DNA of 64,000 nt from a virus. The position numbers and the translations under genes are program-made. The stretch covers positions 66,973 to 130,972 of IMG/VR virus record IMGVR_UViG_3300027708_000030; one strand, 5' to 3'. Shown here piece by piece: positions 15,510 to 34,230 of this stretch; position 1 is the stretch's first letter, and every line of letters begins with the position of its first letter. A model generated the notes under the pieces. It ran no database searches. It saw only the letters and a list, made by a program, of their open reading frames with translations, and was not told where the DNA came from.

Positions 15510-15734
15510 ATGGAATTTTTAAAGGTAAAGGGGATGGATGGTTTATTTCGAGATACATCAAACCAAGCTATCCTAAATAATAATAGTAAAGAATATGGGG
15601 CTTATGTTGCTCGAAGAGATGCAGCTAGGGTTCAAAAACAAGAACTAGAGAGACAAGGTAAAGAATTACAGGATGTTAAGTCTGAGATTTCTGAGATTAA
15701 ACACATGCTTCAAATTCTTATAAATAAACAATAA
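15510..15734 (+). CDS. Small conserved coiled-coil hypothetical protein
   Basis: ATG at 15510 preferred over the GTG at 15501. L.RD..S.AI.N motif and a C-terminal coiled coil; usual position after the VrlC-like gene. Confidence 0.75.
   Translation: MEFLKVKGMDGLFRDTSNQAILNNNSKEYGAYVARRDAARVQKQELERQGKELQDVKSEISEIKHMLQILINKQ
15719..15726 (+). promoter_or_regulatory. T4-type late promoter TATAAATA
   Basis: Exact consensus at the start of the fibre array; gp55 is encoded in the window. Confidence 0.7.
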
Positions 15735-15943
15735 TGGCACTCCAAACTCCAGTTACTACCGTACCGCAAACTGACTCCTTTGACCAGTGGCGAGTTAAGA
15801 CCAATTCGGTTATTACACAATCTAACCAGAATGTGGTGAATGTTGGCGATCTAGCCACGTTGGCTGGTGGAGAAACAACTATTGTGGACGCTGTAAATGG
15901 CGGACGAAACTTTTCAATTGCAATTTCAATCGCATTAGGATAA
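15734..15943 (+). CDS. Small fibre-attachment protein (TDSFDQWRVKTN N-terminus, SIALG C-terminus)
   Basis: Preceded by late promoter TATAAATA. C-terminal AISIALG is shared with 41157..41552. Confidence 0.7.
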   Translation: MALQTPVTTVPQTDSFDQWRVKTNSVITQSNQNVVNVGDLATLAGGETTIVDAVNGGRNFSIAISIALG

Positions 15944-15948
15944 AAAAC

Positions 15949-16272
15949 ATGGCGAACACTTTTAAGAATGCACTAGCACGAAACGTCGGAACTTCCGCTG
16001 TTACTGTGTATACTGCACCATCTAGTAAAAACTCAATCTGCATCGAACTAGACGTTTGTAATACCACAAACGCTGGTGTTACTGTTGATGCTTATATTAC
16101 TTCTAGTTCAGCAAACTACTACATCGTTAAGGGTGCTCCAGTTCCTGTTGGTGGTTCACTACAGATTATTGCTGGACAGAAAATCGTTCTGTCAAATACA
16201 GATGCTCTTAAAGTTGTTTCATCAACGGCTTCGTCATTAGACATTATAGCCAGCATTTTGGAAGATGTCTGA
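15949..16272 (+). CDS. Small beta-rich virion adaptor protein (MANTFK type), paralog 1
   Basis: AGGA RBS; paralog of 22086..22412 (YTAP..., PVP.G.S/TL, L...D.L/I). Confidence 0.75.
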   Translation: MANTFKNALARNVGTSAVTVYTAPSSKNSICIELDVCNTTNAGVTVDAYITSSSANYYIVKGAPVPVGGSLQIIAGQKIVLSNTDALKVVSSTASSLDIIASILEDV

Positions 16273-16274
16273 TC

Positions 16275-17477
16275 ATGCCGATTCAAAAAGGACCAGCTAA
16301 TCTAGGTACAGGAAGTGTTGATAGCACTGAGTTATCCAACACACTAGATCTTTCTGCCAAAACAGTAACATACAGAACAATCGTTGCTGGTGATATTGCT
16401 TCTAATGCAATCACTCCAGCCAAGATGGCTAATAGTGGTGCCGAGTTTGGTATGCGTAACCGCATCATCAATGGTGCGATGGTGATTGACCAGCGTAATG
16501 CGGGGGCTAGTGTAACTCCAGTTAACGCACAAACCACATTAGATAGATGGCAAGGGGGATTAAGTCAAACAGGAAAATACACCATTCAACAATCTACAAC
16601 CGCACCTACAGGTTTTAGAAATTCATTATTAATAACTTCAACTTCTGCGTATAGTTTGTTGGCGGGAGATAATTTTCAATTAAGTCAACCGATTGAAGGA
16701 TACAATATCGCAGATTTCAACTGGGGTACTGCTTCTGCTTCTTCAGTTACTTTATCATTTTGGGTTCGTTGCAGTTTGACTGGCACATTTGGGGGTGCTA
16801 TATACAATGGTTCGGCAAATAGATTTTATCCATTTAGTTATACCATTTCATCTGCTAACACATTTGAATACAAAACAATAACTATTACTGGAGATACTTC
16901 TGGAACATGGTCAACTGATAATTCTACTGGCATAAGAGTTATGTTTTGCTCTGCTGGTGCTGGTTCAACTTATTTAGGAACTGCTGGCGCATGGACAAGT
17001 AGTGTTATTTTGGGGGTTACTGGGCAAACAAACCTTGTGGCAACTAATGGCGCTACTTGGTATGTAACAGGCGTACAACTAGAAAAAGGCAGTACCGCAA
17101 CATCGTTTGATTACAGACCTTTTGGGACTGAGTTGGATTTGTGTCAAAGATATTTTACAAAAAGTCAAAGTTGGGCAGCTGCCGTTACTGCTGGTGAAGG
17201 ACAAGGTTTAATTGCGTGGAACGCAGTTACTACATCTGTAATAGCGGGGTGGGCTTCACATAAAGTATCAATGAGAACACAACCAACTATTACCATCTAT
17301 AGACAAGACGGCACAATTAATGCAACTAATAGATTTACTGATGGCGTTAATACTACTGGAACAGCTACTTGTCCAGAACCAGGAATAGAAGGATTTAGAT
17401 ATGTGTCAAATGCATCTAGTGGATTTACTGCTGGAACATATTATCAATTTTACTATACAGCATCTGCGGAGTTATAA
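16275..17477 (+). CDS. Putative fibre/receptor-binding protein, RNRIINGAM family copy 1
   Basis: Core RNRIINGAMVIDQRNAG...TGVQLEKG...LCQRY, variable C-terminus ending AEL; five paralogs in the window. Confidence 0.75.
   Translation: MPIQKGPANLGTGSVDSTELSNTLDLSAKTVTYRTIVAGDIASNAITPAKMANSGAEFGMRNRIINGAMVIDQRNAGASVTPVNAQTTLDRWQGGLSQTGKYTIQQSTTAPTGFRNSLLITSTSAYSLLAGDNFQLSQPIEGYNIADFNWGTASASSVTLSFWVRCSLTGTFGGAIYNGSANRFYPFSYTISSANTFEYKTITITGDTSGTWSTDNSTGIRVMFCSAGAGSTYLGTAGAWTSSVILGVTGQTNLVATNGATWYVTGVQLEKGSTATSFDYRPFGTELDLCQRYFTKSQSWAAAVTAGEGQGLIAWNAVTTSVIAGWASHKVSMRTQPTITIYRQDGTINATNRFTDGVNTTGTATCPEPGIEGFRYVSNASSGFTAGTYYQFYYTASAEL
16458..16513 (+). repeat. 56-nt dispersed direct repeat A (copies at 22485-22540 and 29835-29890)
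   Basis: AACCGCATCATCAATGGTGCGATGGTGATTGACCAGCGTAATGCGGGGGCTAGTGT; each other copy differs from this one at one position. Confidence 0.9.
17076..17135 (+). repeat. 60-nt dispersed direct repeat B (copy at 23112-23171; partial copy at 30473-30520)
   Basis: CAACTAGAAAAAGGCAGTACCGCAACATCGTTTGATTACAGACCTTTTGGGACTGAGTTG; 59/60 identical to 23112-23171. Confidence 0.9.
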
Positions 17478-17633
17478 ATGTATAAATTATTAAAATCAAT
17501 AAGAGGTGATGTAACGGCAGTTTTTCGTTTATCTGATGGTGCATCTATTCCTTTTAATCCAGACAACACAGACTACCAAGAATACTTAAAGTGGCTTGCT
17601 GAAGGTAATACTCCAGAACCTGCTGACGAATAA
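17478..17633 (+). CDS. 51-aa putative fibre chaperone (IP..DN.DYQEYL.W...GNTP family) copy 1
   Basis: Translated by hand: [58 protein letters not shown] lies in the upstream gene end. Below the ORF-track size cutoff. Confidence 0.85.
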
Positions 17634-17659
17634 ATAAAGAATAACAGAAGAGTAAATCA

Positions 17660-19582
17660 ATGGCATATATCGGATCACCACCAGCATATCAAGCATCTGG
17701 AGTTCGCCCACGTGATGAGTTCACGGCAGACGGCACACAGATTTGCTACCCATTATCACAATCTGTTCCAGGTTCTTTTGAATCAGGTGTAACGATTGTT
17801 CTTGATAACGTGCCACAACAACCAGTTGAAGCATTTACTGTTGTTGATACTACAACACTAACTTTTACTGCTGTTACTGGCACATTTACAAAGAACGAAA
17901 CAGTTACTGGTGGAACCAGTTCTGCAACTGGTACTGTCTTAAAAGTCAATCTTGGAAGCATCGTTGTTCGTGGACTTACTGGTACATTTGCTAGTGGTGA
18001 GACGATTACTGGTGGTTCTTCTTCTGCAAGTGGAACTTCTGCTGTTGTTAGCACAAATACAGGTTCTGGCATTTTATTCTCAGAAATCCCAGCATCTGGT
18101 GCATTCCTTTATGTTGTGCATGAAGGTAATGCAACTTATAATCTAGTTCCAGCTGCAGCATCAGTTTCAGCTACTCAGTTGGCAGACAATCTAAGAAACT
18201 TTACTGTTGATACATTTACTGGTGATGGTTCTACAACTGCATTTAATCTTTCAGCAATTCCTGCATCTGGAAATGCGATTCTAGTTTCTGTTGATGGTAT
18301 TTTCCAAACAGTTACTACAAACTATACACTGTCTTCAAATACAGTAACATTTACTGCTGCTCCAGATTCTGGCTCAGCAATTACAATTATTCATCTTGGA
18401 TTTAGCACTGCATCTAGAACTGGTCTAGTTGATGGTTCAGTTACTCCAGCCAAGTTAAGTTCTGGTGCTCCACTATGGAATACTTCGAGCAATCTAGGTG
18501 TTGGTGTTACTCCAGTGACATTTAAAGGTACACTACAAGTTGGTACTATTGGTTATACTGATACTGGTATCCTTGCTGGATTTGCTTCAAGTGTTGCTGG
18601 ATATAATCAGATTATTTTACAGAATACTAACTCTGGTTCTACATCATCCACAAACTTCAATGTGTCAAATAACAATGGCACAACAACTACTAACTATGGT
18701 GAGTTTGGTATTAACTCATCTGGATTTACTGGCACTGGCTCATTTAGTCAGGCTGGATATACTTACTTGGCATCAGCATCAACTGATCTAGCCATCGGTA
18801 CTTACGGTTCAAATGCTATTCACTTTGTTGTAAATAGTGGTGCAACTGATGCAGCAATTATTGATACTGCTGGTCAAATTGGTATTGGTGCAACTCCAGC
18901 TACATGGGGTACGAGTAAAGCACTTCAAATTGGTTTAGCTGGTGCTTTTAGTGGTCAAACAGGTGCTAAAACTGCAGAAGTTACATCCAACGCTTACTTA
19001 AATAGTGGTTGGAAATATCTTACTAGTGGCGATAAGGCAACTTTATATTATCAATATGCTGGTGCTCATACTTTCAATGCTTCAGCAGCAACAGGTTCTG
19101 CTGGTAATGGTATTACATGGGATGCTGGTACAACAATAAATCCTTATGGTGTCGGTGTTGGTGGTGCAACACCATCTAGTGGTATCGGTATCGCATTCCC
19201 TGCAACTCAAGTCGCTTCTACTGATCCAAACACGCTAGATGATTATGAAGAAGGTACTTTTACAATGACATATAATGCAGGAACAATTTCTAGTCAAAGT
19301 GGTCAATACACAAAAGTTGGTAGATTAGTAACTGCTACTTTTCAAATTAATTGGACTGCCTCTGGAACATCTTTAGGGCAAATTGGTGGACTTCCATTTA
19401 ATGTATCTACAATTAACTACGGTGGAACTCATTCAAGAGAATGGTATAATACTGGAAATTCCGTACAATGTGTAATGAGTACTGGTGCAGCAACTATGGA
19501 TTTATTCTTTTACAATGGTGGTAGAGGAGTATCAAATGGATCTATATACGGTGTATCAGGAACAGTTGTTTATAATACGTAA
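17660..19582 (+). CDS. Fibre protein with MAYIG N-terminus, FTGDG-type beta domains and DDYEEG tip domain
   Basis: G/S/T-rich; two FTxDG..F.L..V.DG..Q..F..AP domains; TLDDYEEGT...YTKVGRLVT tip shared with 32184..32945. Confidence 0.75.
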   Translation: MAYIGSPPAYQASGVRPRDEFTADGTQICYPLSQSVPGSFESGVTIVLDNVPQQPVEAFTVVDTTTLTFTAVTGTFTKNETVTGGTSSATGTVLKVNLGSIVVRGLTGTFASGETITGGSSSASGTSAVVSTNTGSGILFSEIPASGAFLYVVHEGNATYNLVPAAASVSATQLADNLRNFTVDTFTGDGSTTAFNLSAIPASGNAILVSVDGIFQTVTTNYTLSSNTVTFTAAPDSGSAITIIHLGFSTASRTGLVDGSVTPAKLSSGAPLWNTSSNLGVGVTPVTFKGTLQVGTIGYTDTGILAGFASSVAGYNQIILQNTNSGSTSSTNFNVSNNNGTTTTNYGEFGINSSGFTGTGSFSQAGYTYLASASTDLAIGTYGSNAIHFVVNSGATDAAIIDTAGQIGIGATPATWGTSKALQIGLAGAFSGQTGAKTAEVTSNAYLNSGWKYLTSGDKATLYYQYAGAHTFNASAATGSAGNGITWDAGTTINPYGVGVGGATPSSGIGIAFPATQVASTDPNTLDDYEEGTFTMTYNAGTISSQSGQYTKVGRLVTATFQINWTASGTSLGQIGGLPFNVSTINYGGTHSREWYNTGNSVQCVMSTGAATMDLFFYNGGRGVSNGSIYGVSGTVVYNT

Positions 19583-19641
19583 TTTAAATTAACTAACCCA
19601 TATTAGGTTAGTCGGACTTTTTAACAACAGGAGAAATCAAA

Positions 19642-19899
19642 ATGGCTTTAACAAAAGAACAAGTAATCGACAAAGTAGAAGTAGTGGAAAACGGTACTCT
19701 ACAAGTTCGTGAAGTAACAAGAATTATGGAAGATGGTAAGCAATTATCTTCTTCTTATCATCGTTGGAGTTTTGCACCGAACAGTGATGTTTCTGCAATG
19801 CCTGCGAATGTACAAGCAATTGCTGCAGCTGCATGGACTGCTGAAGTTATCGCTGCATACGAAGCACAAGTAGCTGCAAATGCTACACCAAGCGTATAA
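19642..19899 (+). CDS. Small putative chaperone of the DDYEEG-type tip
   Basis: AGGAG RBS; 85 aa; directly follows the DDYEEG fibre. Confidence 0.7.
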   Translation: MALTKEQVIDKVEVVENGTLQVREVTRIMEDGKQLSSSYHRWSFAPNSDVSAMPANVQAIAAAAWTAEVIAAYEAQVAANATPSV

Positions 19900-19902
19900 A
19901 TA
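19895..19902 (+). promoter_or_regulatory. T4-type late promoter TATAAATA
   Basis: Exact consensus 30 nt upstream of the 19932 gene. Confidence 0.75.
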
Positions 19903-19931
19903 GTTAGAACTAGAAACCACAGAGACCAAAG

Positions 19932-21419
19932 ATGGCAATATCAAGAATAAATTCAAGAGCAATCCTAGACGGAAGCGTTGTTGCTGCTGAGGTAGCTGAT
20001 GGTGCTATTACACCTGCTAAACTGCAGACTGGTGTTGATTTTACTGTCAATACGGTAAGAGTTGGTCTTGGTGCTGGTGCAGTTTCAAGTAATACTACAT
20101 TAGGTGCATCTGCTCTAGATACAAACTCTAGCGGTGCTCAAAACGTAGCCATCGGATATACAGCACTACAGAAAAATACAACTGCCAGTGAAAATACTGC
20201 AGTTGGTCATGGTTCTTTAACAAATAATACAACTGGTGCAGAATCGGTTGCAATTGGTAGATTAGCATTATATACAAATACAACTGGTGGGCAAAATACT
20301 GCAGTTGGTAAACAAGCACTTGCTGGAAACACCACAGCATCTAATAACACAGCAGTGGGTTATCAAGCTGGTTACTCAAATACAACTGCTTCTGGAATTA
20401 CTGCTGTTGGAAATCAAGCTGGTTATAGTGTTGCAGGCAGAGATAATACATTTATTGGCGTAAGTTCAGGTTTGTGGCAAACATCAGGGCTTGAAAATAC
20501 TGCTGTTGGTAAAAATTCTTTTGTAGGAACCAACGGAAGCGCAACTGGTGGTGGTAATAGTGCATTTGGTGTAGGAACTTTAAGTGCTAATACTAGCGGT
20601 AGTTATGATGTTGCGCTAGGTAACTATTCTTTAACATCAAACACAAGCGGTGGATACAATACAGCAGTTGGTTATCAATCTTTACAAGCCAACACCACAG
20701 CCTCTCAAAACACAGCAGTAGGTTATCAAGCGGGGTATACAAGCGTACTTGGAACAAATAACACCTTTATTGGTTATGGTGCTGGTTATACATCTAATGC
20801 TGCTACAACTACTGGTTATAACACTGCTGTTGGTGCTTATGCAGGATACAGTTTAACCACAGGAACACGCAATACCTTTATTGGTTCATTTCAATCTGGC
20901 GGTACTGCTGGCTCTGGTTCTGCTGTAACTACTGGAGGTGCCAACACTATTATTGGTGCTTACACAGGAAATGGTAGTGGCTTAGATATTCGCACATCAA
21001 GTAACCGCATTGTAATATCAGATGGTGACGGCAGCCCAAGGCTCTATTATGACAACAACGGTGCTATTCAATCTACAAGTGCAGTAGGTAATGGTACTTT
21101 ATATCCAGCTTATTTCTGTCGTGCTTGGGTAAACTTTACTGGATCAAGTGGTTCAATTAACGGAAGTGGAAACGTAAGTTCTGTTACTAGGAATGCAACA
21201 GGTGATTACACAATTAATTTAACAACAGCTATGCCAGATGCAACATACGCAATCACTGGCTGCTTAAAGCCAACAACAGGACAAGCTGGAAATAATGCTA
21301 GAGATGTTCACGTAAAATATGATGCTACTCCAACTACTTCTTCATTCAGAGTTAATACAGCTACCGCTAGTGCTGGATATGAAGACCCAGACAATGTTTA
21401 TTTAGCAATTTTTAGATAA
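19932..21419 (+). CDS. Fibre/adhesin with ~14-residue NTAVG repeats (YadA-head-like beta-roll) and RAWVNF tip domain
   Basis: About 20 N-T-A-V/I-G-x-x-A/S repeats; C-terminal CRAWVNFTG..NVSSVT...GDYTIN. Confidence 0.75.
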   Translation: MAISRINSRAILDGSVVAAEVADGAITPAKLQTGVDFTVNTVRVGLGAGAVSSNTTLGASALDTNSSGAQNVAIGYTALQKNTTASENTAVGHGSLTNNTTGAESVAIGRLALYTNTTGGQNTAVGKQALAGNTTASNNTAVGYQAGYSNTTASGITAVGNQAGYSVAGRDNTFIGVSSGLWQTSGLENTAVGKNSFVGTNGSATGGGNSAFGVGTLSANTSGSYDVALGNYSLTSNTSGGYNTAVGYQSLQANTTASQNTAVGYQAGYTSVLGTNNTFIGYGAGYTSNAATTTGYNTAVGAYAGYSLTTGTRNTFIGSFQSGGTAGSGSAVTTGGANTIIGAYTGNGSGLDIRTSSNRIVISDGDGSPRLYYDNNGAIQSTSAVGNGTLYPAYFCRAWVNFTGSSGSINGSGNVSSVTRNATGDYTINLTTAMPDATYAITGCLKPTTGQAGNNARDVHVKYDATPTTSSFRVNTATASAGYEDPDNVYLAIFR

Positions 21420-21428
21420 GAGACAGAC

Positions 21429-21848
21429 ATGGAAAAAGTAATTATTTATACAAACGAAAACGGAAATGTAAGCATAACTTTTCCTGCGCCAGAATTTTTA
21501 GAAACCCACATAATTGAAGATGTGTTGGCTAAAGACTGTCCTGATCATGCTATTATCGTTGATGATTCTACACTACCAACAGATCATGATTTTTTTAATG
21601 CTTGGAGACTAGTTGATGGTGTAGTTTCTGTTAATTTAGATGCTGCTAAAGAAATTAAAAAAGAAGAATTAAGATTTGCAAGAACTCCACTATTACAAAT
21701 ACAAGATGTAGCGTTCCAAAGAGCACTTGAGACTGGTGCTGATACTTCTTCAATCGTTGCTGAGAAACAAAGACTTAGAGATATTACAAAATTCGCAGAT
21801 GCAGCTACTACACTAGAACAATTAAGAGCAATCTCCATAGACGAATAA
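21429..21848 (+). CDS. Putative tail fibre assembly chaperone
   Basis: LP.D..F.NAW and R..R..LL...D...EKQRLRDIT pattern resembling Tfa-type chaperones; follows a fibre gene. Confidence 0.7.
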   Translation: MEKVIIYTNENGNVSITFPAPEFLETHIIEDVLAKDCPDHAIIVDDSTLPTDHDFFNAWRLVDGVVSVNLDAAKEIKKEELRFARTPLLQIQDVAFQRALETGADTSSIVAEKQRLRDITKFADAATTLEQLRAISIDE

Positions 21849-21867: not shown

Positions 21868-22071
21868 ATGGCACTCACAAGAATAGAAACTGATGGCATT
21901 AAAGACTTGGCAGTCACTACACCAAAGATTGCCAATGATGCCATCACAACAGCAAAAATTGCAACTGGTGCAGTTACCAGTTCAGACATTCTAGACGGCA
22001 CAGTAGATTCAGTAGATGTAACCAGCAACGTGCTTGATGGTTCACTTGCTTACTCTCTAGTGTTCTCTTAA
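21868..22071 (+). CDS. Small fibre-linker protein (MALTRI, AVTTAKI repeats)
   Basis: GAGG RBS and late promoter upstream; 10-residue I.DGAVT.AK repeats; hydrophobic C-terminus before adaptor paralog 2. Confidence 0.7.
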   Translation: MALTRIETDGIKDLAVTTPKIANDAITTAKIATGAVTSSDILDGTVDSVDVTSNVLDGSLAYSLVFS

Positions 22072-22085: not shown

Positions 22086-22412
22086 ATGGCATCCGCATTC
22101 AAATCAGCTGCAACTACTCTGTCAACTACTAGTAGAACAGATCTTTATACTGCACCAGCGTCAACTACAAGTGTGGTGCACAATCTTACTATCGCCAATA
22201 TCGATGGAACAAACAGCGCAACTATTACTATTGAAGTGTACAAAAGTGCTGCAACTACATACTACAAACTGGCATACCTAGTTCCAGTGCCAGCAGGTTC
22301 AACATTGATTTTTGATAAGCCAATCAATCTAGAAACTGGCGACAAGATCAGTTTGACTGCATCTGCGTCAAATGCTCTTTCTGGTTTTGTTTCAGTAATG
22401 CAGATCACTTAA
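22086..22412 (+). CDS. Small beta-rich virion adaptor protein (MANTFK type), paralog 2
   Basis: AAGGA RBS; similar to 15949..16272. Confidence 0.75.
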   Translation: MASAFKSAATTLSTTSRTDLYTAPASTTSVVHNLTIANIDGTNSATITIEVYKSAATTYYKLAYLVPVPAGSTLIFDKPINLETGDKISLTASASNALSGFVSVMQIT

Positions 22413-23510: not shown

Positions 23511-23672
23511 ATGTATAAACAATCTAAATCTTTTATGGAAAATATGAAGATAGTATCAGTAATTCGTTTGTCTGATGGCGCATCTATTCCTTTTGACCCT
23601 AACAACACAGACTACCAAGAATACCTAAAGTGGGTTGCAGAAGGTAATACACCACTCCCAGCAGAGGAATAA
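23511..23672 (+). CDS. 53-aa putative fibre chaperone copy 2
   Basis: [53 protein letters not shown]; AGGAG RBS. Confidence 0.85.
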
Positions 23673-26077: not shown

Positions 26078-26227
26078 ATGTATAAATTAACTAAAGAAAA
26101 CGATTCTGTTGTAAAAGATAATATATTGAGTATTCCATTTGCTGAAGATAATACAGACTATCAAGAATATCTAAAATGGGTTGCTGAAGGTAACACTCCA
26201 CAACCAGCAGACGAACCACAGGAATAA
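26078..26227 (+). CDS. 49-aa putative fibre chaperone copy 3
   Basis: [49 protein letters not shown]. Confidence 0.85.
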   Translation: MYKLTKENDSVVKDNILSIPFAEDNTDYQEYLKWVAEGNTPQPADEPQE

Positions 26228-27052: not shown

Positions 27053-27357
27053 AATCACAAATTAGAGGACATTTAATCGCTGAAGCAATAAGTTCTTTGC
27101 GCCCACTATCTTTGTATACGGTAGGTTCAGATGAAAGTATTAATTGGATTGATACAGTTCAAACTCAACCAACACAAGCAGAAATTGAAGCAGAAATTAT
27201 CCGTCTTCAAGCTGAGTATAATACTAAACAATATCAAAGACTTCGTGCTGCAGAATACCCATCCTACGCAGACCAGTTTGATACAATTTTCCATGAAGGT
27301 ATTGATGCATGGAAAGCACAGATTCAAGCAGTTAAAGACAAATATCCTAAGGTCTAA
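27049..27357 (+). CDS. Putative chaperone of the GSVLQVV-type tip, copy 2
   Basis: GTG start in a GTGA overlap with GGAG upstream; YQRLRAAEYPS..DQFD..VKDKYPK. Confidence 0.75.
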   Translation: MKSQIRGHLIAEAISSLRPLSLYTVGSDESINWIDTVQTQPTQAEIEAEIIRLQAEYNTKQYQRLRAAEYPSYADQFDTIFHEGIDAWKAQIQAVKDKYPKV

Positions 27358-27360: not shown

Positions 27361-28407
27361 ATGCCATTAACACAAATTACTACCAGTAATATCGACACAA
27401 CAAATTCGTTGTTCTTCCGCAATCGTATCATTAATGGTGCGATGATGATTGACCAAAGAAATGCTGGAGGTAGTGTTACAGTAGCTAGTTCTTCTGTATA
27501 TACATTAGACAGATGGGCTACATTAAATGTGGCAAGTTCTAAATTTTCTGTGCAACAGAATGCTGGTTCTGTTACTCCACCACCTGGCTTTACTAATTAT
27601 CTTGGTTTAACTTCATTAGCAGCTACAAGTCTTGCAGCTGGTGATTATTATCAAGTATTACAGACAATCGAAGGAACTAATATTTCTGATTTAGATTGGG
27701 GTAAATCCACTGCTAAATCAATTACTGTATCATTTTGGGTACGCTCAAGTCTTATAGGAAATCATGGAGGAGCACTTTTAAATGATGGTAATGCTCGTTC
27801 ATATCCATTCTCATATACTATTAATTCTGCAAATACTTGGGAATATAAAACAATTACTATTGCTGGTGACACATCAGGTACTTGGTTAACAACTAATGGT
27901 ATTGGTTTACAATTGCGTTTTTCTTTGGGTATTGGTTCTACATATACTACTACTGCGGGTGCATGGGTTTCTGGAGTTTATGGTGCTCCAACAGGATCAG
28001 TAAATATTGCTGGAACAAACGGAGCAACTTTCTATATTACTGGTGTACAGTTAGAAGTTGGTACTGCTGCGACTGCATTTGAGCGTCGTCCATATGGTAC
28101 TGAGTTAGAATTGTGTCAGAGATATTATGGATATTACCCATCAGTAACATTCACAAACCCATCTACAGCTTTATACAATGGATTTATTTTACATTATAAA
28201 GTTACAATGAGAGGAACTCCTACGGTTGTGTGTTATAGTACAGCTACAGGAGCAGCAAATAAATTACGATATCAAGATGGTGCAGCTGATATCACCACTT
28301 ATCAAGGTGGAACCAATGCTAATACAGTTTCAATAGCTGCAAATAATTCAAGCACTAATGGTGGGTCAAATATGTTCGTTACTGTTACATGCGATGCGGA
28401 GTTATAA
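27361..28407 (+). CDS. RNRIINGAM-family fibre/receptor-binding protein copy 4
   Basis: Paralogous core; ends CDAEL. Confidence 0.75.
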   Translation: MPLTQITTSNIDTTNSLFFRNRIINGAMMIDQRNAGGSVTVASSSVYTLDRWATLNVASSKFSVQQNAGSVTPPPGFTNYLGLTSLAATSLAAGDYYQVLQTIEGTNISDLDWGKSTAKSITVSFWVRSSLIGNHGGALLNDGNARSYPFSYTINSANTWEYKTITIAGDTSGTWLTTNGIGLQLRFSLGIGSTYTTTAGAWVSGVYGAPTGSVNIAGTNGATFYITGVQLEVGTAATAFERRPYGTELELCQRYYGYYPSVTFTNPSTALYNGFILHYKVTMRGTPTVVCYSTATGAANKLRYQDGAADITTYQGGTNANTVSIAANNSSTNGGSNMFVTVTCDAEL

Positions 28408-28409
28408 AA

Positions 28410-28565
28410 ATGTATAAACAAGTAAAATCACCTGCTGGAATTATCTTAGATTATGTTATCAGAGAAACTGGTGGATGGATTCCATTCGATCCAGATAATA
28501 GAGACTACCAAGAATATCTAAAATGGTTAGAAGCAGGTAATACTCCGCTTCCTGCAGACGAATAA
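28410..28565 (+). CDS. 51-aa putative fibre chaperone copy 4
   Basis: [51 protein letters not shown]. Confidence 0.85.
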   Translation: MYKQVKSPAGIILDYVIRETGGWIPFDPDNRDYQEYLKWLEAGNTPLPADE

Positions 28566-28594
28566 ATAACAGAGAACATCACAGAGAATAACCT

Positions 28595-29446
28595 ATGTAT
28601 ATTGGAAGAGATCCCATCTATGGCGCCTACGAGTTACAAACGCTAACTCCAGACAGTAGCACAACTACATTCACTCTGACTTATGCCGTTGGTGCAGCTC
28701 CAGCCATCATGGTATTTTACGGTGGTGTATATCAAACTCCAGGTGTGGCATATGCTTTATCAGGTGGTGGTACAAGCATTGTTTTCTCTGAAGCACCAGT
28801 AACTGGCACAACATTAATCATTGTCTATCTCGGTCGTCAATTAACAGTTGCTCGTACTGCTGGACAAGAAACAACTACACAATCGTTTACTGGTGACGGA
28901 ACAACTACCAGTTTTACACTAACAGATGCACCAGTTGTTTCTTCAGGTGTTCTAGTATTCATTGATGGTATTCAACAGAAACTTACAACACACTTTTCTG
29001 TTTCTGGCTCTAACATTATTTTCAACACTGCTCCTGATGCCAGTGCTGAAATTGATGTTTATACACTGGTCAAGGAAAAAGTTTCTATTGACACAGTTGG
29101 TGATGGTGTGCTTACTCGTGCAAAATTAGCGTCTTCAATTAATCGTAGCACAGTTGGTGTTTACTCGATTATCACTGGTGCAACAACTGCTACTGCTGGT
29201 TCTTATTACTTTGTAGATACTACCTCAGCTGCGATTACTCTAACATTACCAACAACTGCAGTATTAGGTGATACCATTCGTATTATAGATATGGCAGGAA
29301 CATTTGCTACAAACAATTTAACAGTGTCTAGAAATGGTCACAAAATTCAAAGAATCGCAGACAACTTAACAGTTAACCTTGCTGGTTCTTCTTTTGATTT
29401 AATTTACTCGAACAGCACAAACGGCTGGCTCGTATTCTCACTGTAA
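28595..29446 (+). CDS. Fibre adaptor with MYIG N-terminus, two FTGDG beta domains and a C-terminal YFVDT..TLTLP..GD.I.I.D domain
   Basis: C-terminal domain resembles the N-terminal repeats of T4-type proximal tail fibres. Confidence 0.7.
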   Translation: MYIGRDPIYGAYELQTLTPDSSTTTFTLTYAVGAAPAIMVFYGGVYQTPGVAYALSGGGTSIVFSEAPVTGTTLIIVYLGRQLTVARTAGQETTTQSFTGDGTTTSFTLTDAPVVSSGVLVFIDGIQQKLTTHFSVSGSNIIFNTAPDASAEIDVYTLVKEKVSIDTVGDGVLTRAKLASSINRSTVGVYSIITGATTATAGSYYFVDTTSAAITLTLPTTAVLGDTIRIIDMAGTFATNNLTVSRNGHKIQRIADNLTVNLAGSSFDLIYSNSTNGWLVFSL

Positions 29447-29454
29447 GGTAAAAA

Positions 29455-29658
29455 ATGGCGACAATATACAGCGCAATTAAGAACTATGGTGGAGCTGCAG
29501 GTGGTGGCTCTGACAAGGTATTCGTTGAGAATGATAAAACAATGAACAGTAGTTATACTATTACTACTGGTAAAAATGCCGAAGCAGTTGGTCCAATTAC
29601 CGTTGCTTCAGGTGCAACTCTAACAGTTCCAAGCGGACAAAGATTGGTGATACTATGA
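29455..29658 (+). CDS. Small fibre-associated protein (GPITVASG motif)
   Basis: AAGG RBS; ATGA overlap with the next gene. Confidence 0.7.
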   Translation: MATIYSAIKNYGGAAGGGSDKVFVENDKTMNSSYTITTGKNAEAVGPITVASGATLTVPSGQRLVIL

Positions 29659-30884
29659 GTGCGGTAGTTATTTCTGGCGATACAAGTGGTTCAGTAACCC
29701 TACAAGCACCTACGATTTCTGGTGCAACAACACTAACATTACCTGCAGTTTCTGGTACAGTACTACAATCTGGTACTACAGTTACTGAAGCACAAGGTGG
29801 TACTGGTACAACTACTGGTTACTACGGATTTAAGAACCGCATCATCAATGGTGCGATGGTAATTGACCAGCGTAATGCGGGGGCTAGTGTTACTGCCAAC
29901 ACAGGAAACCCTTTTACAGTCGATAGATGGGCGATTATTTCTTCTGTAAATAGTAAATTTACAGCACAGCAAAATGCTGGCTCTGTCACACCACCAGCAG
30001 GATTCACTAACTACTTAGGTATAACATCTTCTTCTGCTTATACAGTGGGGGCTTCTGAACAATACCTGATTAGGCAACAAATTGAAGCATATAACGTAAA
30101 TGATTTGGCTTGGGGAACAGCCAATGCCAAAGCAGTAACTTTGTCGTTTAAAGTTTATTCTTCATTAACAGGCACTTTTGGCGGGACTCTTTTTAATTAC
30201 AACGGTTCACGCAACTACCCTTTTTCATACACAATTTCATCTGCAAATACATGGACATCAATTAGTGTAACTATTGCTGGCGATACATCAGGAACTTGGG
30301 CTGGAACTAATGGCGCTGGAATTGGTGTCCAGTTTGGACTTGGTGTTGGTTCAACATTAAGTGGAACTGCTGGTTCTTGGTCAGGGACTTATTATGGTTC
30401 ATGCACAGGTGCAACATCCGTAGTAGGAACAAACGGTGCAACCTTCTATGTGACTGGTGTGCAATTAGAGGTAGGCAGTACCGCAACATCGTTTGATTAC
30501 AGACCTTATGGTACTGAGTTAGCACTATGTCAAAGATATTTTGTTAAAACATTTAACTCTTCTGTCGCCCCTGCTCAAACTATACCAGATCAAGTTGGTG
30601 CAATTTGTGGATCTGTTCGTGCATTCGGTGGAGCATCTGGAAGCAGTTGGGAACCTCAAGGTCAATGGTGTTACCCTGTTGAACTTAGAGCATCGCCTAC
30701 AGTTACTTTATATGGAACATACGCTGGAAGCGGTCAATGGTCAAACAGCGGAAACACAACTTCATCAAATGCTCGTGTTCAAAATGCTGGAACTAGAAAT
30801 GCAACAATTGACAATACTGGTAACACAGTTGCTTTTGGTTCTAACTCTCCTTTTATTCACGCTACTGCTTCAGCGGAGTTATAA
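29655..30884 (+). CDS. RNRIINGAM-family fibre/receptor-binding protein copy 5
   Basis: Paralogous core; ends ASAEL. Confidence 0.75.
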   Translation: MSAVVISGDTSGSVTLQAPTISGATTLTLPAVSGTVLQSGTTVTEAQGGTGTTTGYYGFKNRIINGAMVIDQRNAGASVTANTGNPFTVDRWAIISSVNSKFTAQQNAGSVTPPAGFTNYLGITSSSAYTVGASEQYLIRQQIEAYNVNDLAWGTANAKAVTLSFKVYSSLTGTFGGTLFNYNGSRNYPFSYTISSANTWTSISVTIAGDTSGTWAGTNGAGIGVQFGLGVGSTLSGTAGSWSGTYYGSCTGATSVVGTNGATFYVTGVQLEVGSTATSFDYRPYGTELALCQRYFVKTFNSSVAPAQTIPDQVGAICGSVRAFGGASGSSWEPQGQWCYPVELRASPTVTLYGTYAGSGQWSNSGNTTSSNARVQNAGTRNATIDNTGNTVAFGSNSPFIHATASAEL

Positions 30885-30887
30885 CCT

Positions 30888-31037
30888 ATGTATAAATTAG
30901 TTAAAGATGTAAAATTTGTTCAGCGTTTATCAGATGGCGCTTTTATTCCAATGAGTCATGATAACTCAGACTATAAAGCATACCTAGAATGGCTCGCTGA
31001 AGGTAACACTCCAGAACCAGCAGAAGGAACAGAATAA
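30888..31037 (+). CDS. 49-aa putative fibre chaperone copy 5
   Basis: [49 protein letters not shown]; TAATG overlap with the next gene. Confidence 0.85.
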
Positions 31038-32182
31038 TGGCTAGTATAATTTCGGCTGGCACGGCTACCAATACTGCAGTAAGCATTACTGGTGACACTA
31101 CTGGTGCACTTGCTCTTGCCACAAACAATGGTACTACTGCGTTAACGATTGATACCGCACAGAATGTGGGTATTGGTACTACTAGTCCTGCGGCAAGATT
31201 AGATGTTAGAACAACATCTTCAACGCAAGCCACCTTCACCAGAACAGGTCAATCTGCTGTTTGTTCAATTTTTCAAAGCACAGCAGACACGTATTTGTCG
31301 GCAACAAACTCAGGCGCATCTTTAATTCTTGCAACTCAAGACACAGAAAGAATGCGTATCACCTCTGCTGGATATGTTGGTATTGATCAGACAGCCCCAA
31401 CCACCGTTTTTTGTGTAGGGGGTGGTATGGCTGGCGGTAGCGGTAATTGGGCTCACTTTAGAAATAATGTGGGTACATCAGCAAATCCCCCTGCTTCCGA
31501 TCCATATGGTGTATATTTGGGATGCAATTATTCAGGCGGTAACAACGAAGGTAACATTGCATATAGAGGATCTTTAACATTTGGTGCATGGGATGGATCT
31601 TCATATAGACCTCACGCTCAATTTGTTAACGCAGCAAGTCTTGGGGCTTCGTCTGGCGGACAATTACAAATTAATAGAACTACCAATTCATATCAAGAAT
31701 CCCTTAGCATAGGCACAAACAATACACAAGGTATTCATATAAATGAAACGAGCAATTCAAGCTCGATAAATCTTGTTTATTTCACAAGACAAGTTTCAGG
31801 TACACAAACAGAATCAGGAAGAATTTATTGGGGTGGTTCATCAATAGCCTACCTGACTTCTTCAGACTACAGATTGAAGAAAGATGTGTCACCAATGACG
31901 ACTGGTCTTTCGACAGTTATGCAGTTGAATCCAGTAAATTTTGTATGGAAGCATAATAATAAGCCTGCCAATGGATTTTTGGCTCACGAGTTGCAAGAAC
32001 ATTGTCCAGACGCAGTATCTGGTGAGAAAGATGCTCTAAATGAGGATGGTTCTATTAAGGTTCAATCTGTGGACACATCATTCCTCGTAGCCACACTAAC
32101 TGCTGCAATCCAAGAACTCAAAACTATAGTTGACGCACAAGCAGTAGAAATCGCTGCACTCAAAGCAAAGGTAGGAGCATAA
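31037..32182 (+). CDS. Tail fibre with C-terminal intramolecular chaperone (peptidase S74-type) domain
   Basis: NVGIGTTSP repeats; SDYRLKKD..L.PV.F.W..GFLAHELQE..coiled coil. Confidence 0.85.
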   Translation: MASIISAGTATNTAVSITGDTTGALALATNNGTTALTIDTAQNVGIGTTSPAARLDVRTTSSTQATFTRTGQSAVCSIFQSTADTYLSATNSGASLILATQDTERMRITSAGYVGIDQTAPTTVFCVGGGMAGGSGNWAHFRNNVGTSANPPASDPYGVYLGCNYSGGNNEGNIAYRGSLTFGAWDGSSYRPHAQFVNAASLGASSGGQLQINRTTNSYQESLSIGTNNTQGIHINETSNSSSINLVYFTRQVSGTQTESGRIYWGGSSIAYLTSSDYRLKKDVSPMTTGLSTVMQLNPVNFVWKHNNKPANGFLAHELQEHCPDAVSGEKDALNEDGSIKVQSVDTSFLVATLTAAIQELKTIVDAQAVEIAALKAKVGA

Positions 32183-32183
32183 G

Positions 32184-32945
32184 ATGGCGATTATTTTAGA
32201 CGGAACTCTTGGCATTACAACTCCAGGTGGTGATACATCTGCAGTATCCTACACAACTCCTATTGTTAAGAGTCCATCATCATTAACACTACAGACTAAT
32301 GGTACAACTACTGCAGTAACGATTGATACTTCACAGAATGTGGGTATTGGTACTGCCAGCCCTGGAATTAAAGTAGATGTCAATGGTGGTATGAGAGTTC
32401 AGTCTTTGAGTAATCCATCATCTGGTGCAGGTATGGAACTTGGATATGATGGTACACAAGGTGTTATCCAGATTTATAGCAATAGAGCAACACAAACTGG
32501 TGTTCCTTTATTAATTGGTACTGGACAGATTAAATTCCCTGCTACTCAATCTGCTTCATCTGATGCAAATACGCTAGACGATTATGAAGAAGGTGCATGG
32601 ACACCTACTTTTTCATCGGTTTCGGGTTCACTAACTTCATATACATCTGGTGGTTATTATATAAAAATAGGCGGTCTTGTAACAATTTATGGATGGGTGA
32701 GAATTACAACGGCTGGAACTGCATCTGGTGGTGGAAGAATACTTAATCTACCATTTTCTGCATCTAATATTACTGGTTATTATAGAAATCAAGGCGCATG
32801 TCAAGAAAGTCAAAATACTGGACTTGCTTATCAATTTTTTCCTGTTGATTCAGGTACTATTTACATATTATCGCCTACAAACGGAGCAATTACTTGGACA
32901 GCAGGATATACATATCCGTTCCAATTAACATACCAATCAACTTAA
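32184..32945 (+). CDS. Short fibre with DDYEEG tip domain
   Basis: NVGIGT stem; TLDDYEEGAWTP...YIKIG.LVT. Confidence 0.75.
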   Translation: MAIILDGTLGITTPGGDTSAVSYTTPIVKSPSSLTLQTNGTTTAVTIDTSQNVGIGTASPGIKVDVNGGMRVQSLSNPSSGAGMELGYDGTQGVIQIYSNRATQTGVPLLIGTGQIKFPATQSASSDANTLDDYEEGAWTPTFSSVSGSLTSYTSGGYYIKIGGLVTIYGWVRITTAGTASGGGRILNLPFSASNITGYYRNQGACQESQNTGLAYQFFPVDSGTIYILSPTNGAITWTAGYTYPFQLTYQST

Positions 32946-32985
32946 TCGCCAACAATAAATAGTCCAATAACAAAAGAGTAAATAA

Positions 32986-34230
32986 ATGGCAATCAGAAAA
33001 ATAAATTCTAGAAGCATCGAAGATAGCGCAATCGCAGCAGCAGACGTTGCTGCTGGTTCAATCACTACTGCTAAAATTGCATCTAGTGTTACGTTGACAA
33101 CTCCAACAATTGACACTATCACATCTGCTGCAGCCACTGCTCTAACTTTAAAGTCTGCTGGCACTACTGCGATTACTGTTAGCACAGGTCAATTAGTTGG
33201 TGTCGGTACTGCTTCTCCAACAAATACTCTACAAGTAGCTGGTGGTATTTCTGCCACTAGTTCTGCTCCAGCATTCCAAGCATCTGCTGCAATTATGGAT
33301 GTTAGTGCTGGTGTTGCTCGTTTTAATGCTACTGGTGCAGACTCCTCTACTTATGGAGTGATGACTTTTAATAGAGGTTCATCTAATGCTGGTTTGTTTC
33401 AAGAAAGTATGCGTATTTCCGCTGCTGGTAATGTAGGTATTGCAACTACTAGCCCTACGTCATCACTTGAAATTTACAGGGCTAATTCTTCAACTGGTTC
33501 ATTAACTGATACATCGTTATTACTTTCAACAAGTGCCACTACTGGTCGTAAAGTAAATATTGGTTTTGGTTTGGGTGGTGGAGTTGCTAATACTTGTGCT
33601 GCAGTAATTGGATATGATGTTATAAGTGGAACAGGAGCAGGATACGGAGACATTTTCTTCTCTACCAGAAGTACCACTGCAGATAGTGTTCCATCAGAGC
33701 GTATGCGTGTAACCAATGATGGAACTATTAGAATTGGTATGCAAAACTTTGCAGCTGCCGTTTCTTCATCTAACTTTGGTATGTCTCTTAATAATACTAA
33801 TGCTGGTTCTTACTCTTATGCATATAGTACGACTACTAATACTCATTGGGGTTTTGGTAATGGTAATGGTGGAACAGGTTCTATTCAAACGAATGGTTCA
33901 ACAACATCATTCAATACAACTTCTGACCACAGATTAAAACAAAATGTTGTTCCAATGACTGGTGGTCTTGCAAGAGTTCAAGCACTAAAACCTGTCACAT
34001 ACAAGTGGAAAGTTGATGGTGCAGATGGAGAAGGTTTTATCGCCCATGAATTACAAGAAGTTTGTTCTCATGCAGTAACAGGCGAAAAAGATGCAGTAGA
34101 TGAAAATGGGGATCCAGTCTATCAACAAGTAGACACATCATTCTTAGTTGCTACTCTAACTGCTGCAATCCAAGAACTCAAAGTCGAGAATGATGCCCTC
34201 AAAGCCAGACTCGATGCAGCAGGACTTTAA
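32986..34230 (+). CDS. Tail fibre with C-terminal intramolecular chaperone (peptidase S74-type) domain
   Basis: SDHRLKQN..LKPV.YKW..GFIAHELQE; N-terminus similar to 19932..21419. Confidence 0.85.
   Translation: MAIRKINSRSIEDSAIAAADVAAGSITTAKIASSVTLTTPTIDTITSAAATALTLKSAGTTAITVSTGQLVGVGTASPTNTLQVAGGISATSSAPAFQASAAIMDVSAGVARFNATGADSSTYGVMTFNRGSSNAGLFQESMRISAAGNVGIATTSPTSSLEIYRANSSTGSLTDTSLLLSTSATTGRKVNIGFGLGGGVANTCAAVIGYDVISGTGAGYGDIFFSTRSTTADSVPSERMRVTNDGTIRIGMQNFAAAVSSSNFGMSLNNTNAGSYSYAYSTTTNTHWGFGNGNGGTGSIQTNGSTTSFNTTSDHRLKQNVVPMTGGLARVQALKPVTYKWKVDGADGEGFIAHELQEVCSHAVTGEKDAVDENGDPVYQQVDTSFLVATLTAAIQELKVENDALKARLDAAGL

Follow-up and report, generated by a model that had tools for sequence, protein, structure and literature searches.

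How do the products of a long row of separate fibre genes fit together? This question is raised by a gene block within a 64,000-nucleotide (nt) stretch of viral DNA (henceforth the window), i.e., bases 66973-130972 of the 130,972-base IMG/VR virus record IMGVR_UViG_3300027708_000030. The block (15734-34230 of the window; genes are named by their start position) consists of 27 co-oriented, tightly packed open frames, where an earlier sequence-only reading had counted about 29. Our number takes in two partner open reading frames (ORFs) of 49 amino acids (aa) at 26078-26227 and 30888-31037, which are below the 50-aa listing limit. The block encodes twelve tips, tip-less adaptors and chaperone-like ORFs, and in our judgement its proteins probably join non-covalently end to end by three types of joint (J1 to J3). 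For J1, a fibre piece with a hydrophobic ..AIALG tail would be followed by a separate 107-aa jelly roll, named MANTFK after its start, and then by a piece that starts with M(A)Y(I/L)G. In J2, a C-terminal T4 gp10-like domain would take a partner starting with M-x-x-Y-x-x-(I)-K, while in J3 a C-terminal GPITV..VPSGxRWVIL module of about 50 aa would take one to three small tips starting with M-(S/A)-x-(V/I)-(I/L)-x-x-G. We are more tentative, at slightly less than even chances, about the further proposal that J1 and J3 are physical joints of undescribed kinds which, together with gp10-like domains, form a readable grammar giving fibre architecture from gene order.

The sequence-only reading had resolved the block into a small list of parts, and all five items are present in the translations where it had placed them. 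That is, two linker genes precede two MANTFK genes (15734 ending ..AISIALG, then 15949 starting MANTFK; 21868 ending ..AYSLVFS, then 22086 starting MASAFK), and four proteins with M(A)Y(I/L)G starts (17660 MAYIG, 23681 MYLG, 26231 MAYLG, 28595 MYIG) carry seven FTGDG domains, distributed 2+2+1+2 according to a hidden Markov model (HMM). The N-termini MALT/MPLT/MAI.(K/R)I and MSAVVI/MASII/MAIIL are likewise as described, and all-against-all BLASTP of the window proteins assigns the twelve tip domains to five families, one of which comprises the AEL tips.

To describe the joints, we counted gene-order patterns in 240 fetched IMG/VR viral loci, 80 per joint. Relatives of the MANTFK proteins are encoded at 488 places in an IMG/VR scan, and the J1 sample holds 109 MANTFK genes with 81 distinct sequences. 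The gene before MANTFK ends in [IVLM][AV][LF][GS]G? (typically ..AIALG) in 109/109 cases compared to 8/776 other ORFs. The gene after it starts with M..[YF][IL]G in 78/94 cases compared to 44/788 other ORFs, where the 94 are those MANTFK genes with a next gene of at least 90 aa within 60 nt. The 16 exceptions start with MAIVGV (4), MPIQKG/MAIQKG (4), MALTQV (3), MPISKI (3) and MSRWRI (2). The pairing of linker and MANTFK, proposed from two instances in the window, is thus a general rule across the 80 loci. The partner suggested for MANTFK has to be revised: in the block an AEL tip comes next, while elsewhere MANTFK has its conserved partner in the fibre encoded next, namely in the M(A)YIG start of that fibre. 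Proteins encoded before MANTFK vary in length between 47 and 723 aa, and their N-termini are of several unrelated kinds. M(A)YIG proteins are among them, such that the J1 rule can apply twice in a row, as for genes 173-175 of phage Melnitz. Among the 159 plus-strand ORFs of at least 40 aa in the window, the J1 tail motif is found in four (15734, 21868, 41157 and one nested in 23681) and the M..[YF][IL]G start in exactly the four proteins listed above.

The same order is present in cultured, finished genomes, namely HTVC019P (gp38/gp39/gp40), S-TIM5 and Melnitz (twice); it is also found in RHph_TM30, YerA41 and HMO-2011 and, as a looser variant, in PhiW-14. J1 therefore spans podophages and myophages as well as marine, soil and fish-pathogen hosts, with cultured carriers infecting SAR11, SAR116, OM43, Synechococcus, Rhizobium and Yersinia ruckeri. 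In the HTVC019P record, the genes on either side carry the label 'tail fiber protein', and the one given to the MANTFK relative, as to other MANTFK relatives in GenBank, is 'virion structural protein'. In many loci, the M(A)YIG peptide after MANTFK is followed by other repeats and no T7-gp17-N-like (T7N) domain, as the FTGDG domains are called below. Fusions occur both ways, i.e., tail with MANTFK (P0257, P0196) and MANTFK with tip (P0198, P0222, P0241).

The MANTFK proteins 15949 and 22086 are homologous (30% identity over 108 aa, BLASTP E 1e-13). The two linkers are analogous rather than shown to be homologous, since BLAST gave no match between them, and Pfam at E<=10 returned nothing for linker 1 and only a sub-threshold DUF5907 match (16.4 bits) for linker 2. 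AlphaFold2 (AF2) predicts MANTFK as a confident eight-strand jelly roll with a predicted local distance difference test (pLDDT) score of 96.8. Its structural neighbours in Foldseek and VIA-align are only generic jelly rolls, i.e., phage cement and turret proteins, Ena pilins, nucleoplasmin and TNF/C1q (best Z 9.8), and sequence searches of solved structures with the single sequence or a 53-row profile gave no useful match (best E 0.26 for the profile). MANTFK matches the N-terminal part of phrog_1276 (E 2.5e-10 and 1e-8) and also phrog_26609. Relatives form 1224 clusters (50% identity) at E<=0.001 and are mostly free-standing: 138 of 150 listed representatives have at most 127 aa, and 571 MANTFK-related proteins are 58-188 aa long.

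As the sequence-only reading had proposed, a terminal peptide and a candidate adaptor were also submitted to complex prediction. With 22086 and residues 1-90 of 23681 entered as alignments, in three copies apiece, the score was 0.42 (runs 0.35, 0.42 and 0.52) against 0.02 for the best control; the runs share at least 74% of contacts, with a partner pLDDT of at least 78. In the tool's calibration, its mark is reached by 58/80 solved complexes and 2/110 mismatched pairs, yet scores up to 0.60 comprise only 7 of the 80 solved complexes and both mismatches that passed. By this calibration, the support for the pair is weak.

For J2, we found that residues 190-281 of 28595 form a T4 gp10-like (XD) domain, the only one found in the window. 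The earlier statement that nothing like T4 gp9 to gp12 can be recognised is wrong for this one domain. With phmmer, 28595 matches three CBA120 tailspike chains with E values between 4.7e-7 and 1.9e-6 (7rfv, 7rej, 7rfo) and T4 gp10 with E 0.037. Its AF2 model shows three domains behind nine disordered residues. The last one superimposes on the N-terminal part of CBA120 tailspike TSP4 (7rej_B, Foldseek) with a root-mean-square deviation of 1.3 A over 97 columns (25% identity, E 6.2e-8) and also aligns to T4 gp10 (5iv5_AC, E 9.2e-4) and gp9 (1qex), while the first two resemble the N-terminal part of T7 gp17 (7boz_a, E 1.6e-2; 7ey9_b, E 1.1e-2) and podophage fibre N-domains. Among 120 listed homologues of 28595, nine carry PF07880 and eight PF03906.

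At least 576 relatives of the 28595 alignment were identified in IMG/VR with search patterns that lie in the gp10-like domain. The J2 sample of 80 loci contains 86 proteins with this domain, which is C-terminal (at most 5 residues from the end) in 67; for 56 of the latter the next gene lies within 60 nt. That gene starts with M..(.)Y in 46/56 cases compared to 144/597 other ORFs, and in 43/56 compared to 76/597 when K, R or Q is additionally demanded 3-5 residues further on; many of these background ORFs are further tips of the same class from the same loci. After internal XD domains, the start is found in 3/16 cases only. Examples are MATYSSKKY, MANYNAIKY and MSEYKGIKG, and MATIYSAIKNY of 29455 fits. 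Within the window, 2 of the 159 plus-strand ORFs have it (29455 and one at 47608). This is in accordance with the anchor-branch principle described in PMC6872550, in which T4 gp10-like domains are the docking sites of conserved N-terminal peptides 7 to 29 residues long. Its sequence elements occur here, i.e., a T7 gp17-related anchor (PF03906), a gp10-like domain and a nearby protein with a conserved N-terminal peptide. Judged by sequence, J2 is an instance of this known principle and 28595 a putative tip-less adapter like K1-5 gp37.

Two side observations concern other loci. Between the fibre cassettes of relatives, often just upstream of the XD adaptor, ORFs of 207-262 aa occur that start with M(I/P)(S/I)(H/A)HLY(K/Q)IT.. 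or MFLDNKY (L008 9372-9995, L009 9351-10001, L011 4607-5395, L014 3132-3758, L019 14557-15192); the window is without them there. They look like inserted mobile genes, e.g., homing endonucleases. Furthermore, three other marine viral contigs (L122, L134, L120) encode runs of paralogous 440-486-aa proteins that start with MALTK.. or MAISKI.., end with ..VIIRYKYQ and carry an internal gp10-like domain at about residues 30-170, i.e., many branch-capable fibres in a row.

The candidate for J3 is the 67-aa protein 29455, in which the J2-type start is followed by the module ..GPITVASGATLTVPSGQRLVIL. The module was found in 351 IMG/VR stretches. In the J3 sample, it lies within 8 residues of the C-terminus in 80/80 proteins (67 distinct), in 75 of them exactly at the end, behind bodies of 69 to 821 aa with many different N-termini; in the window, 29455 is the only one of the 159 ORFs with this tail. 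Downstream, frequently as runs of two or three, come genes whose products start with MSSVVISGDTSG, MASTINASTS, MSIILNGTTG, MPITLNGSG and the like. At least 5 of 12 positions are identical to one of the three window N-termini for 32/73 next genes compared to 43/467 other ORFs. That a third N-terminal class clusters after the GPITVASG protein, as the sequence-only reading had noticed, is therefore a general rule as well. Free-standing relatives of 67-72 aa form Atlas clusters of 98, 91 and 73 members, and the layout of a 67-aa gene and a tip gene with the same ATGA overlap recurs in L077 and L078. We considered 29455 and 29655 as one frameshifted gene and rejected this, given that the 67-aa form recurs free-standing. 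A sequence search of solved structures with 29455 gave nothing useful, nor did Pfam at E<=10 return anything for it or for the N-termini of 29655, 31037 and 32184. With regard to the fold of J3, the Mtd_N beta-prism (PF18454) is present in 11% of the members of an Atlas cluster at score 0.84, which we take as a lead only.

J1 and J3 occur in series in the SAR116 podophage HMO-2011 (L264 1661-5848). There, a 593-aa side-fibre-like protein ending ..AMAIAL comes first; a MANTFK relative of 108 aa, an MPYIG protein of 149 aa with the J3 module at its end, and small proteins (124, 161 and 133 aa) labelled 'putative tail fiber' follow in this order. In open-access text searched by keyword, where motifs are not searchable, we found a description neither of the J1 order (tail, free jelly roll, M(A)YIG start) nor of the GPITV..RWVIL socket. 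Hence the view that the docking code matches no described system applies, within that literature, to J1 and J3, while 28595 resembles K1-5 gp37, G7C gp66 and CBA120 TSP4.

Applied to the block, rules J2 and J3 give a chain of three levels, 28595 > 29455 > 29655/31037/32184. Here, 28595 (anchor plus gp10-like domain) would carry the 67-aa converter 29455, which would offer its J3 socket to 29655, 31037 and 32184; the MYIG start of 28595 would itself need a socket. The linkers ending ..IALG and ..VFS would carry the two MANTFK proteins, with the M(A)YIG fibres 17660 and 23681 as the expected partners of these. Of the hierarchical tree with a dozen adhesins that had been envisaged, only one such chain can be read from the gene order, while a single tree displaying all twelve at once is not borne out.

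In the relatives, the terminal sequences are kept while the parts behind them vary. For tip proteins compared by position (eight sets, 2-4 relatives in each), identity is 58-100% over the first 20 residues and 25-39% over the last 120. Linker, XD adaptor and the two MANTFK proteins stay conserved throughout; overall, the connectors show 87-91% identity (MANTFK alone 87-89%). The four closest relatives have the same scaffold with different bodies. For instance, the gene after the first MANTFK always starts with MPIQKG/MAIQKG. Behind this start, three phages have an AEL body and the other two have tips of two other types. The termini behave like address tags: across relatives, their position in the gene order is kept even where other tips come behind them. 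In loci from many viral contigs, each of these tags goes with one particular domain next to it. Overall, J1, J2 and J3 all recurred when tags and domains were counted across related contigs, as the sequence-only reading had suggested doing. From gene order, we infer that the tags bind where these rules place them.

The paralogy of the AEL cassettes is also visible as DNA repeats (families D1, D3, D4, D7 and D9). At the start of the AEL domain (NRIINGAMVIDQRNAG), 97-nt stretches with long near-identical runs are 72-80% identical (family D9; copies at 16458-16554, 22485-22581, 27421-27517 and 29835-29931). Within the AEL genes, no DNA is better conserved than this tag-tip border, which could act as a recombination anchor.

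Several points weigh against joints of the proposed kind. The 240 loci are related contigs and not independent samples, such that their counts overstate independent support, and the window itself supplied the motifs that we counted. With 32/73 cases, the start class of J3 is loose. The complex prediction discussed above, the sole one, is weak by the tool's own calibration and covers MANTFK with the MYLG start only. The generic fold matches of MANTFK (Z <= 9.8) are uninformative on function, and both fusions of tail and MANTFK (P0257, P0196) show a Q at the seam, where a stop could have been read through. In the window and its four closest relatives, the gene after MANTFK starts with MPIQKG/MALTQV and not with MAYIG, and for four M(A)YIG proteins the whole record has no more than two MANTFK genes. 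Protein 41157 ends ..AMSIALG, yet a gp13-like gene follows it and no MANTFK; the ..IALG tail could therefore be a folding or trimerisation element. Finally, PF07880 reaches no match at E<=1 anywhere in the whole record.

Some of these points feed the best-surviving alternative, a plain multi-fibre locus in which each fibre or tip attaches separately to the baseplate or neck. We consider it unlikely overall, though it is the rival to be taken most seriously. The termini would then be folding or trimerisation signals, recombination anchors or a matter of translational coupling, and MANTFK a knob or assembly factor of the preceding piece. The surplus of M(A)YIG proteins over MANTFK genes and the tail of 41157 would fit such a locus. 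Jelly-roll knobs are common as fibre heads, and MANTFK has only generic fold matches. Neighbouring genes are 0-15 nt apart or overlap by ATGA/GTGA, which points to translational coupling, and the similar DNA runs of family D9 lie at domain borders of the AEL genes. On the other hand, a receptor-binding head would hardly be as conserved as MANTFK is compared to the tips, and the start of the next gene is tied to MANTFK in podophages and myophages alike (the 78/94 cases). The tip-less 28595 and 29455 make sense only as adaptors, and in the relevant parts of PMC6872550 the gp10-like domain family of 28595 is described as docking other fibres.

A second alternative, which we judge improbable, takes the block as a reservoir of alternative cassettes: only some tips would be used per particle, the store would be kept for host range by recombination, and some genes would be decaying copies. 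Such a reservoir would fit a region that is a known hypervariable island of these phages (in the portions of PMC7029224 devoted to it), relatives that vary in number and kind of cassettes at the same positions, and the paralogy of the five AEL cassettes with their repeated DNA. It sits badly with a block in which all 27 frames are open, co-oriented and tightly packed, and in which every AEL tip has kept its small partner ORF (5/5). The conservation of the N-terminal tags at each position likewise speaks against decay, since it indicates selection on each gene. A reservoir would moreover be compatible with the joints being real. That the short proteins (69, 67 and 107 aa) are merely frameshift-broken pieces of longer fibre genes, i.e., an assembly or gene-calling artefact, is close to refuted: 67-aa proteins do match internal or C-terminal parts of longer PHROG families and the J2 tag is fused directly to an AEL tip in L007, L008 and L010, but the short genes recur free-standing in the numbers given above for MANTFK and 29455, the latter with the same layout in L077/L078, and the same split is found in cultured, finished genomes. 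We thus retain the end-to-end joining of the block's proteins as the most plausible reading.

The features of the block are collected in Table 1.

Table 1. Features of the fibre block and its immediate surroundings (window coordinates)
Feature	Coordinates	Strand	Evidence
77-aa conserved virion protein between VrlC-like giant gene and fibre block	15501..15734	+	phrog_473 'virion structural protein' E 1.9e-21
Linker 1, 69-aa mini-fibre ending ..NFSIAISIALG (J1 tail)	15734..15943	+	translation
MANTFK protein 1, 107 aa, eight-strand jelly roll, candidate fibre connector (J1)	15949..16272	+	AF2 pLDDT 96.8
AEL tip 1, start MPIQKG	16275..17477	+	42-51% identity to other four AEL tips; phrog_4492 tail fibre C-terminus E 1.2e-53
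51-aa partner ORF of AEL tip 1	17478..17633	+	59-68% identity to 23511 and 28389; phrog_20370
Fibre: MAYIG start, two T7-gp17-N-like domains, TLDDYEEG tip	17660..19582	+	PF03906 E 2.3e-6; tip similar to 32184
85-aa small ORF, chaperone-like by position	19642..19899	+	phrog_6228 E 5e-19
Fibre: start MAISRI, 17-residue NT.A.G repeats, own tip	19932..21419	+	phrog_6002, phrog_4636, phrog_11355
139-aa small ORF after 19932 fibre	21429..21848	+	phrog_20196 E 3.7e-15
Linker 2, 67 aa, ending ..AYSLVFS (variant J1 tail)	21868..22071	+	translation
MANTFK protein 2, start MASAFK	22086..22412	+	BLASTP; MANTFK profile E 2.4e-25
AEL tip 2, start MALTQV	22422..23501	+	BLASTP; Atlas model pTM (predicted TM-score) 0.88
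53-aa partner ORF of AEL tip 2	23511..23672	+	BLASTP
Fibre: MYLG start, two T7N domains, tip like LME-1 phage orf22	23681..24721	+	PDB 9efk_AE E 1.3e-16, residues 100-344
90-aa small ORF after 23681 tip	24718..24990	+	phrog_9114 E 4.8e-13; related to 27004 ORF
AEL tip 3, start MTQAV	24990..26075	+	BLASTP
49-aa partner ORF of AEL tip 3	26078..26227	+	below 50-aa listing limit
Fibre: MAYLG start, one T7N domain, 23681-family tip	26231..27052	+	BLASTP, domain HMM
Small ORF of ~102 aa after 26231 tip	27049..27357	+	phrog_9114 E 2.2e-25
AEL tip 4, start MPLTQ	27361..28407	+	BLASTP
Partner ORF of AEL tip 4	28389..28565	+	BLASTP
Putative tip-less adaptor: MYIG start, two T7N domains, C-terminal T4 gp10-like XD domain (J2 socket)	28595..29446	+	phmmer, AF2, Foldseek
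Putative 67-aa converter: J2-type start MATIYSAIKNY, C-terminal GPITVASG..RLVIL module (J3 socket)	29455..29658	+	
AEL tip 5, J3-type start MSAVVISGDTSG	29655..30884	+	BLASTP, J3 gene-order comparison
49-aa partner ORF of AEL tip 5	30888..31037	+	below 50-aa listing limit
Fibre: J3-type start MASIISAG, C-terminal S74 intramolecular chaperone	31037..32182	+	PF13884 E 2.8e-10
Tip: J3-type start MAIILDG, TLDDYEEG domain	32184..32945	+	BLASTP, PHROG
Fibre: start MAIRKI, C-terminal S74 chaperone	32986..34230	+	PF13884 E 1.1e-11
Remainder of host recognition cluster: 111- and 83-aa ORFs; 950-, 186-, 316- and 571-aa fibres; 131-aa ..AMSIALG protein	34326..41552	+	

The twelve tips comprise five AEL tips (16275, 22422, 24990, 27361 and 29655; 42-52% identity), two TLDDYEEG tips (17660, 32184), the tip common to 23681 and 26231, which matches tail protein orf22 of phage LME-1 (PDB 9efk, E 1.3e-16), two fibres with an S74 chaperone (PF13884 with 40.8 bits for 31037 and 45.3 bits for 32986 at a curated cut-off of 22), and the tip of 19932 as the only member of its own family. 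Searching solved structures with an AEL tip, as single sequence or as 15-row profile, gave nothing useful. The nearest Pfam-bearing Atlas cluster of AEL tip 2 has CBM_4_9 in 12% of its members, again a lead only. In RHph_TM30 (L262 3833-4885), the tail-fibre protein after the MANTFK relative starts with MSYIG and ends ..ADAEL like the AEL tips; judging from this similarity, the AEL family may reach soil phages. The 19932 gene contains 51-nt DNA repeats (family D5). Linker 1 has a start that is 85-93% conserved in four relatives, and the counterparts of linker 2 in relatives end ..AYSIVFGG and are followed by MASSFK.

The T7N domain corresponds to Pfam PF03906 (Phage_T7_tail; E 2.3e-6 on 17660), and a sequence search of solved structures with 17660 gave nothing useful. 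Our domain HMM was trained with three first domains included and the second domains and the first domain of 17660 left out. Among the 40 proteins scanned, it finds the seven domains in these four and gives no match to the remaining 36. The second domains, outside the training set, score E 1.5e-18, 9e-18 and 6e-4. In 17660, the first domain is split by an insert (residues 1-73 and 124-159; 4e-12 and 0.0055) and the second covers residues 180-252. The inserted repeat, G-T-F-x-x-G-E-x-(V/I)-T-G-G-x-S-x-A-x-G (17837-18115, residues 60-152), is also present in the gp8-like (7785-9176; 44% identity over 99 aa), gp13-like (41557-42513) and VrlC-like (9212-15508) proteins. The sequence-only reading had taken these FTGDG domains as sockets. 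We found nothing that supports this and rejected it, as the gene-order data tie no tag to T7N; the domains look like anchor domains.

Eleven small ORFs lie in the block, one after most tips. We call them chaperone-like by gene position only, since fibre chaperone genes habitually come after their fibre gene. Each AEL tip is followed by an ORF of 49-58 aa from one family (5/5). The families of these small ORFs (phrog_20370, phrog_9114, phrog_6228, phrog_20196) have no assigned function, and Pfam at E<=10 gave only sub-threshold matches for 17478. The ORF at 19642 has the same place in L007 and L008 and is 88-92% conserved. For the ORF at 27049, a GTG start (GTGA overlap with the stop of 26231) is likely, while the listed start is the TTG at 27004.

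With regard to its setting, the record has a CheckV completeness of 81%, and megablast of window positions 15000-35000 gave no match among GenBank phages. The gp6-like protein shares 44.5% identity with gp6 of Methylophilales phage Melnitz and 44.7% with its counterpart in Pelagibacter phage HTVC008M; both phages belong to the Kyanoviridae. Upstream of the fibre block lie gp5-, gp6-, wedge-, gp8- and VrlC-like genes, the last of which (2098 aa, phrog_358) matches the VrlC gene of HTVC008M. The 77-aa protein 15501 follows the giant gene in HTVC008M and relatives as well. Downstream, after further fibre genes that run on past the block to 41552, gp13-, gp14- and gp15-like genes start at 41557, 42517 and 43440. 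Pelagimyophages have a variable 'host recognition cluster' between VrlC and gp14, as described in portions of PMC7029224. The block has this placement (VrlC-like gene to gp13/gp14), and its content differs among relatives. Between the conserved 72-aa gene after VrlC and its 112-aa match to 34326, HTVC008M has 2 genes (626 and 78 aa), where the present virus has 27. In this uncultured, T4-like marine myovirus of the pelagimyophage/Melnitz type, the block makes up the fibre-rich part of the host recognition cluster.

Two proteins of the remaining cluster may be added. The 111-aa protein at 34326-34661 is similar to phrog_3304 'L-shaped tail fiber protein assembly' (E 1.1e-19) and phrog_1084, and is kept ahead of the 950-aa fibre gene in HTVC008M and relatives. 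The 131-aa protein at 41157-41552 has a J1-type tail (..AVAMSIALG) and lies directly upstream of the gp13-like gene, i.e., in the position of T4 wac (fibritin). L016 and L008 have longer forms in its place (226 and 321 aa, start MANK.LLKKSS). It may be a neck whisker that uses a J1-type tail.

In the ocean's most abundant phage-host pairs, host range is set by fibre islands that are still almost entirely annotated as 'hypothetical protein'. If the proposed joints are real, gene order and end-tags would tell which pieces hang on which, such that adaptors, exchangeable tips and the specificities per particle could be read from sequence. MANTFK would be a widespread, separately encoded connector of short-tailed and contractile-tailed phages, and the GPITV..RWVIL socket would carry up to three different small tips within a branched apparatus of up to twelve. 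The rule is not local, given the numerous relatives of MANTFK, 28595 and 29455 in IMG/VR (488, at least 576 and 351, respectively). It offers a way to annotate fibre loci in metagenomes, and the cultured J1 carriers are tractable test systems. We consider the finding of interest because a testable rule would read fibre architecture from gene order in abundant, hard-to-culture phages.

Branched modular receptor-binding complexes with conserved docking peptides are established, and the block shares features with several known systems. The T4 long tail fibre is built from the separately encoded segments gp34-gp35-gp36-gp37 with the small gp35 at the hinge. As proposed for the block, it has separate segments, a small joint protein and chaperone genes beside tip genes. 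Family searches found no sequence relation to gp34-gp37 beyond weak matches to PHROGs named 'long tail fiber distal subunit' (phrog_33119 with E 2.6e-4 and 5e-5 for the S74 ends, phrog_35830 with E 2.6e-4 for 37838). The pelagimyophage host recognition cluster has the same place from VrlC to the neck genes and is likewise hypervariable and fibre-rich. In the portions of PMC7029224 that describe it, it is characterised by gene content (tail fibres, glycosyltransferases) without tags, connectors or assembly logic; no glycosyltransferase was seen in 15734-34230.

The branched tailspike complex TSP1-4 of CBA120 (Kuttervirus; PDB 7rej, 7rfo, 7rfv; PMC8825819) also belongs to a myovirus, displays several receptor-binding proteins on gp10-like domains and provides the best structural match of the C-terminal domain of 28595. 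It differs in that its large tailspikes carry as many as three XD domains in their N-terminal part, while a single XD domain ends the small, tip-less 28595, and in its beta-helix spikes compared to the small jelly-roll and fibre tips of the block.

Closest to 28595 are the anchor-branch systems of podoviruses, i.e., the gp37 adapter of K1-5/K1E/SP6 and G7C gp66 with gp63.1 (sections of PMC6872550) as well as the receptor-binding system of KP32-type Klebsiella podophages (PMC13352976). There, too, a T7-gp17-like anchor is followed by a gp10-like domain and no tip of its own, a short conserved peptide starts the next gene, and tips are exchanged behind conserved N-termini. The block differs in three respects. 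It belongs to a T4-like myovirus, with a doubled anchor and an extra MYIG start in 28595. Instead of a tip, the gp10-like domain would take a 67-aa converter, which would in turn open a second kind of socket. The peptide M-x-x-Y-x-x-I-K is a marine-phage consensus derived from gene order alone. On a larger scale, RaK2 and phiK64-1 (Alcyoneusvirus) are described, in the part of PMC6872550 concerned with them, as having about a dozen receptor-binding proteins made of standard units and relying on five gp10-like domains. As proposed for the block, one anchor, several conserved N-terminal peptides and several branching domains are combined; yet compared to those five gp10-like domains, one was found in the window, and most of the joints that we propose would be of the J1 and J3 types.

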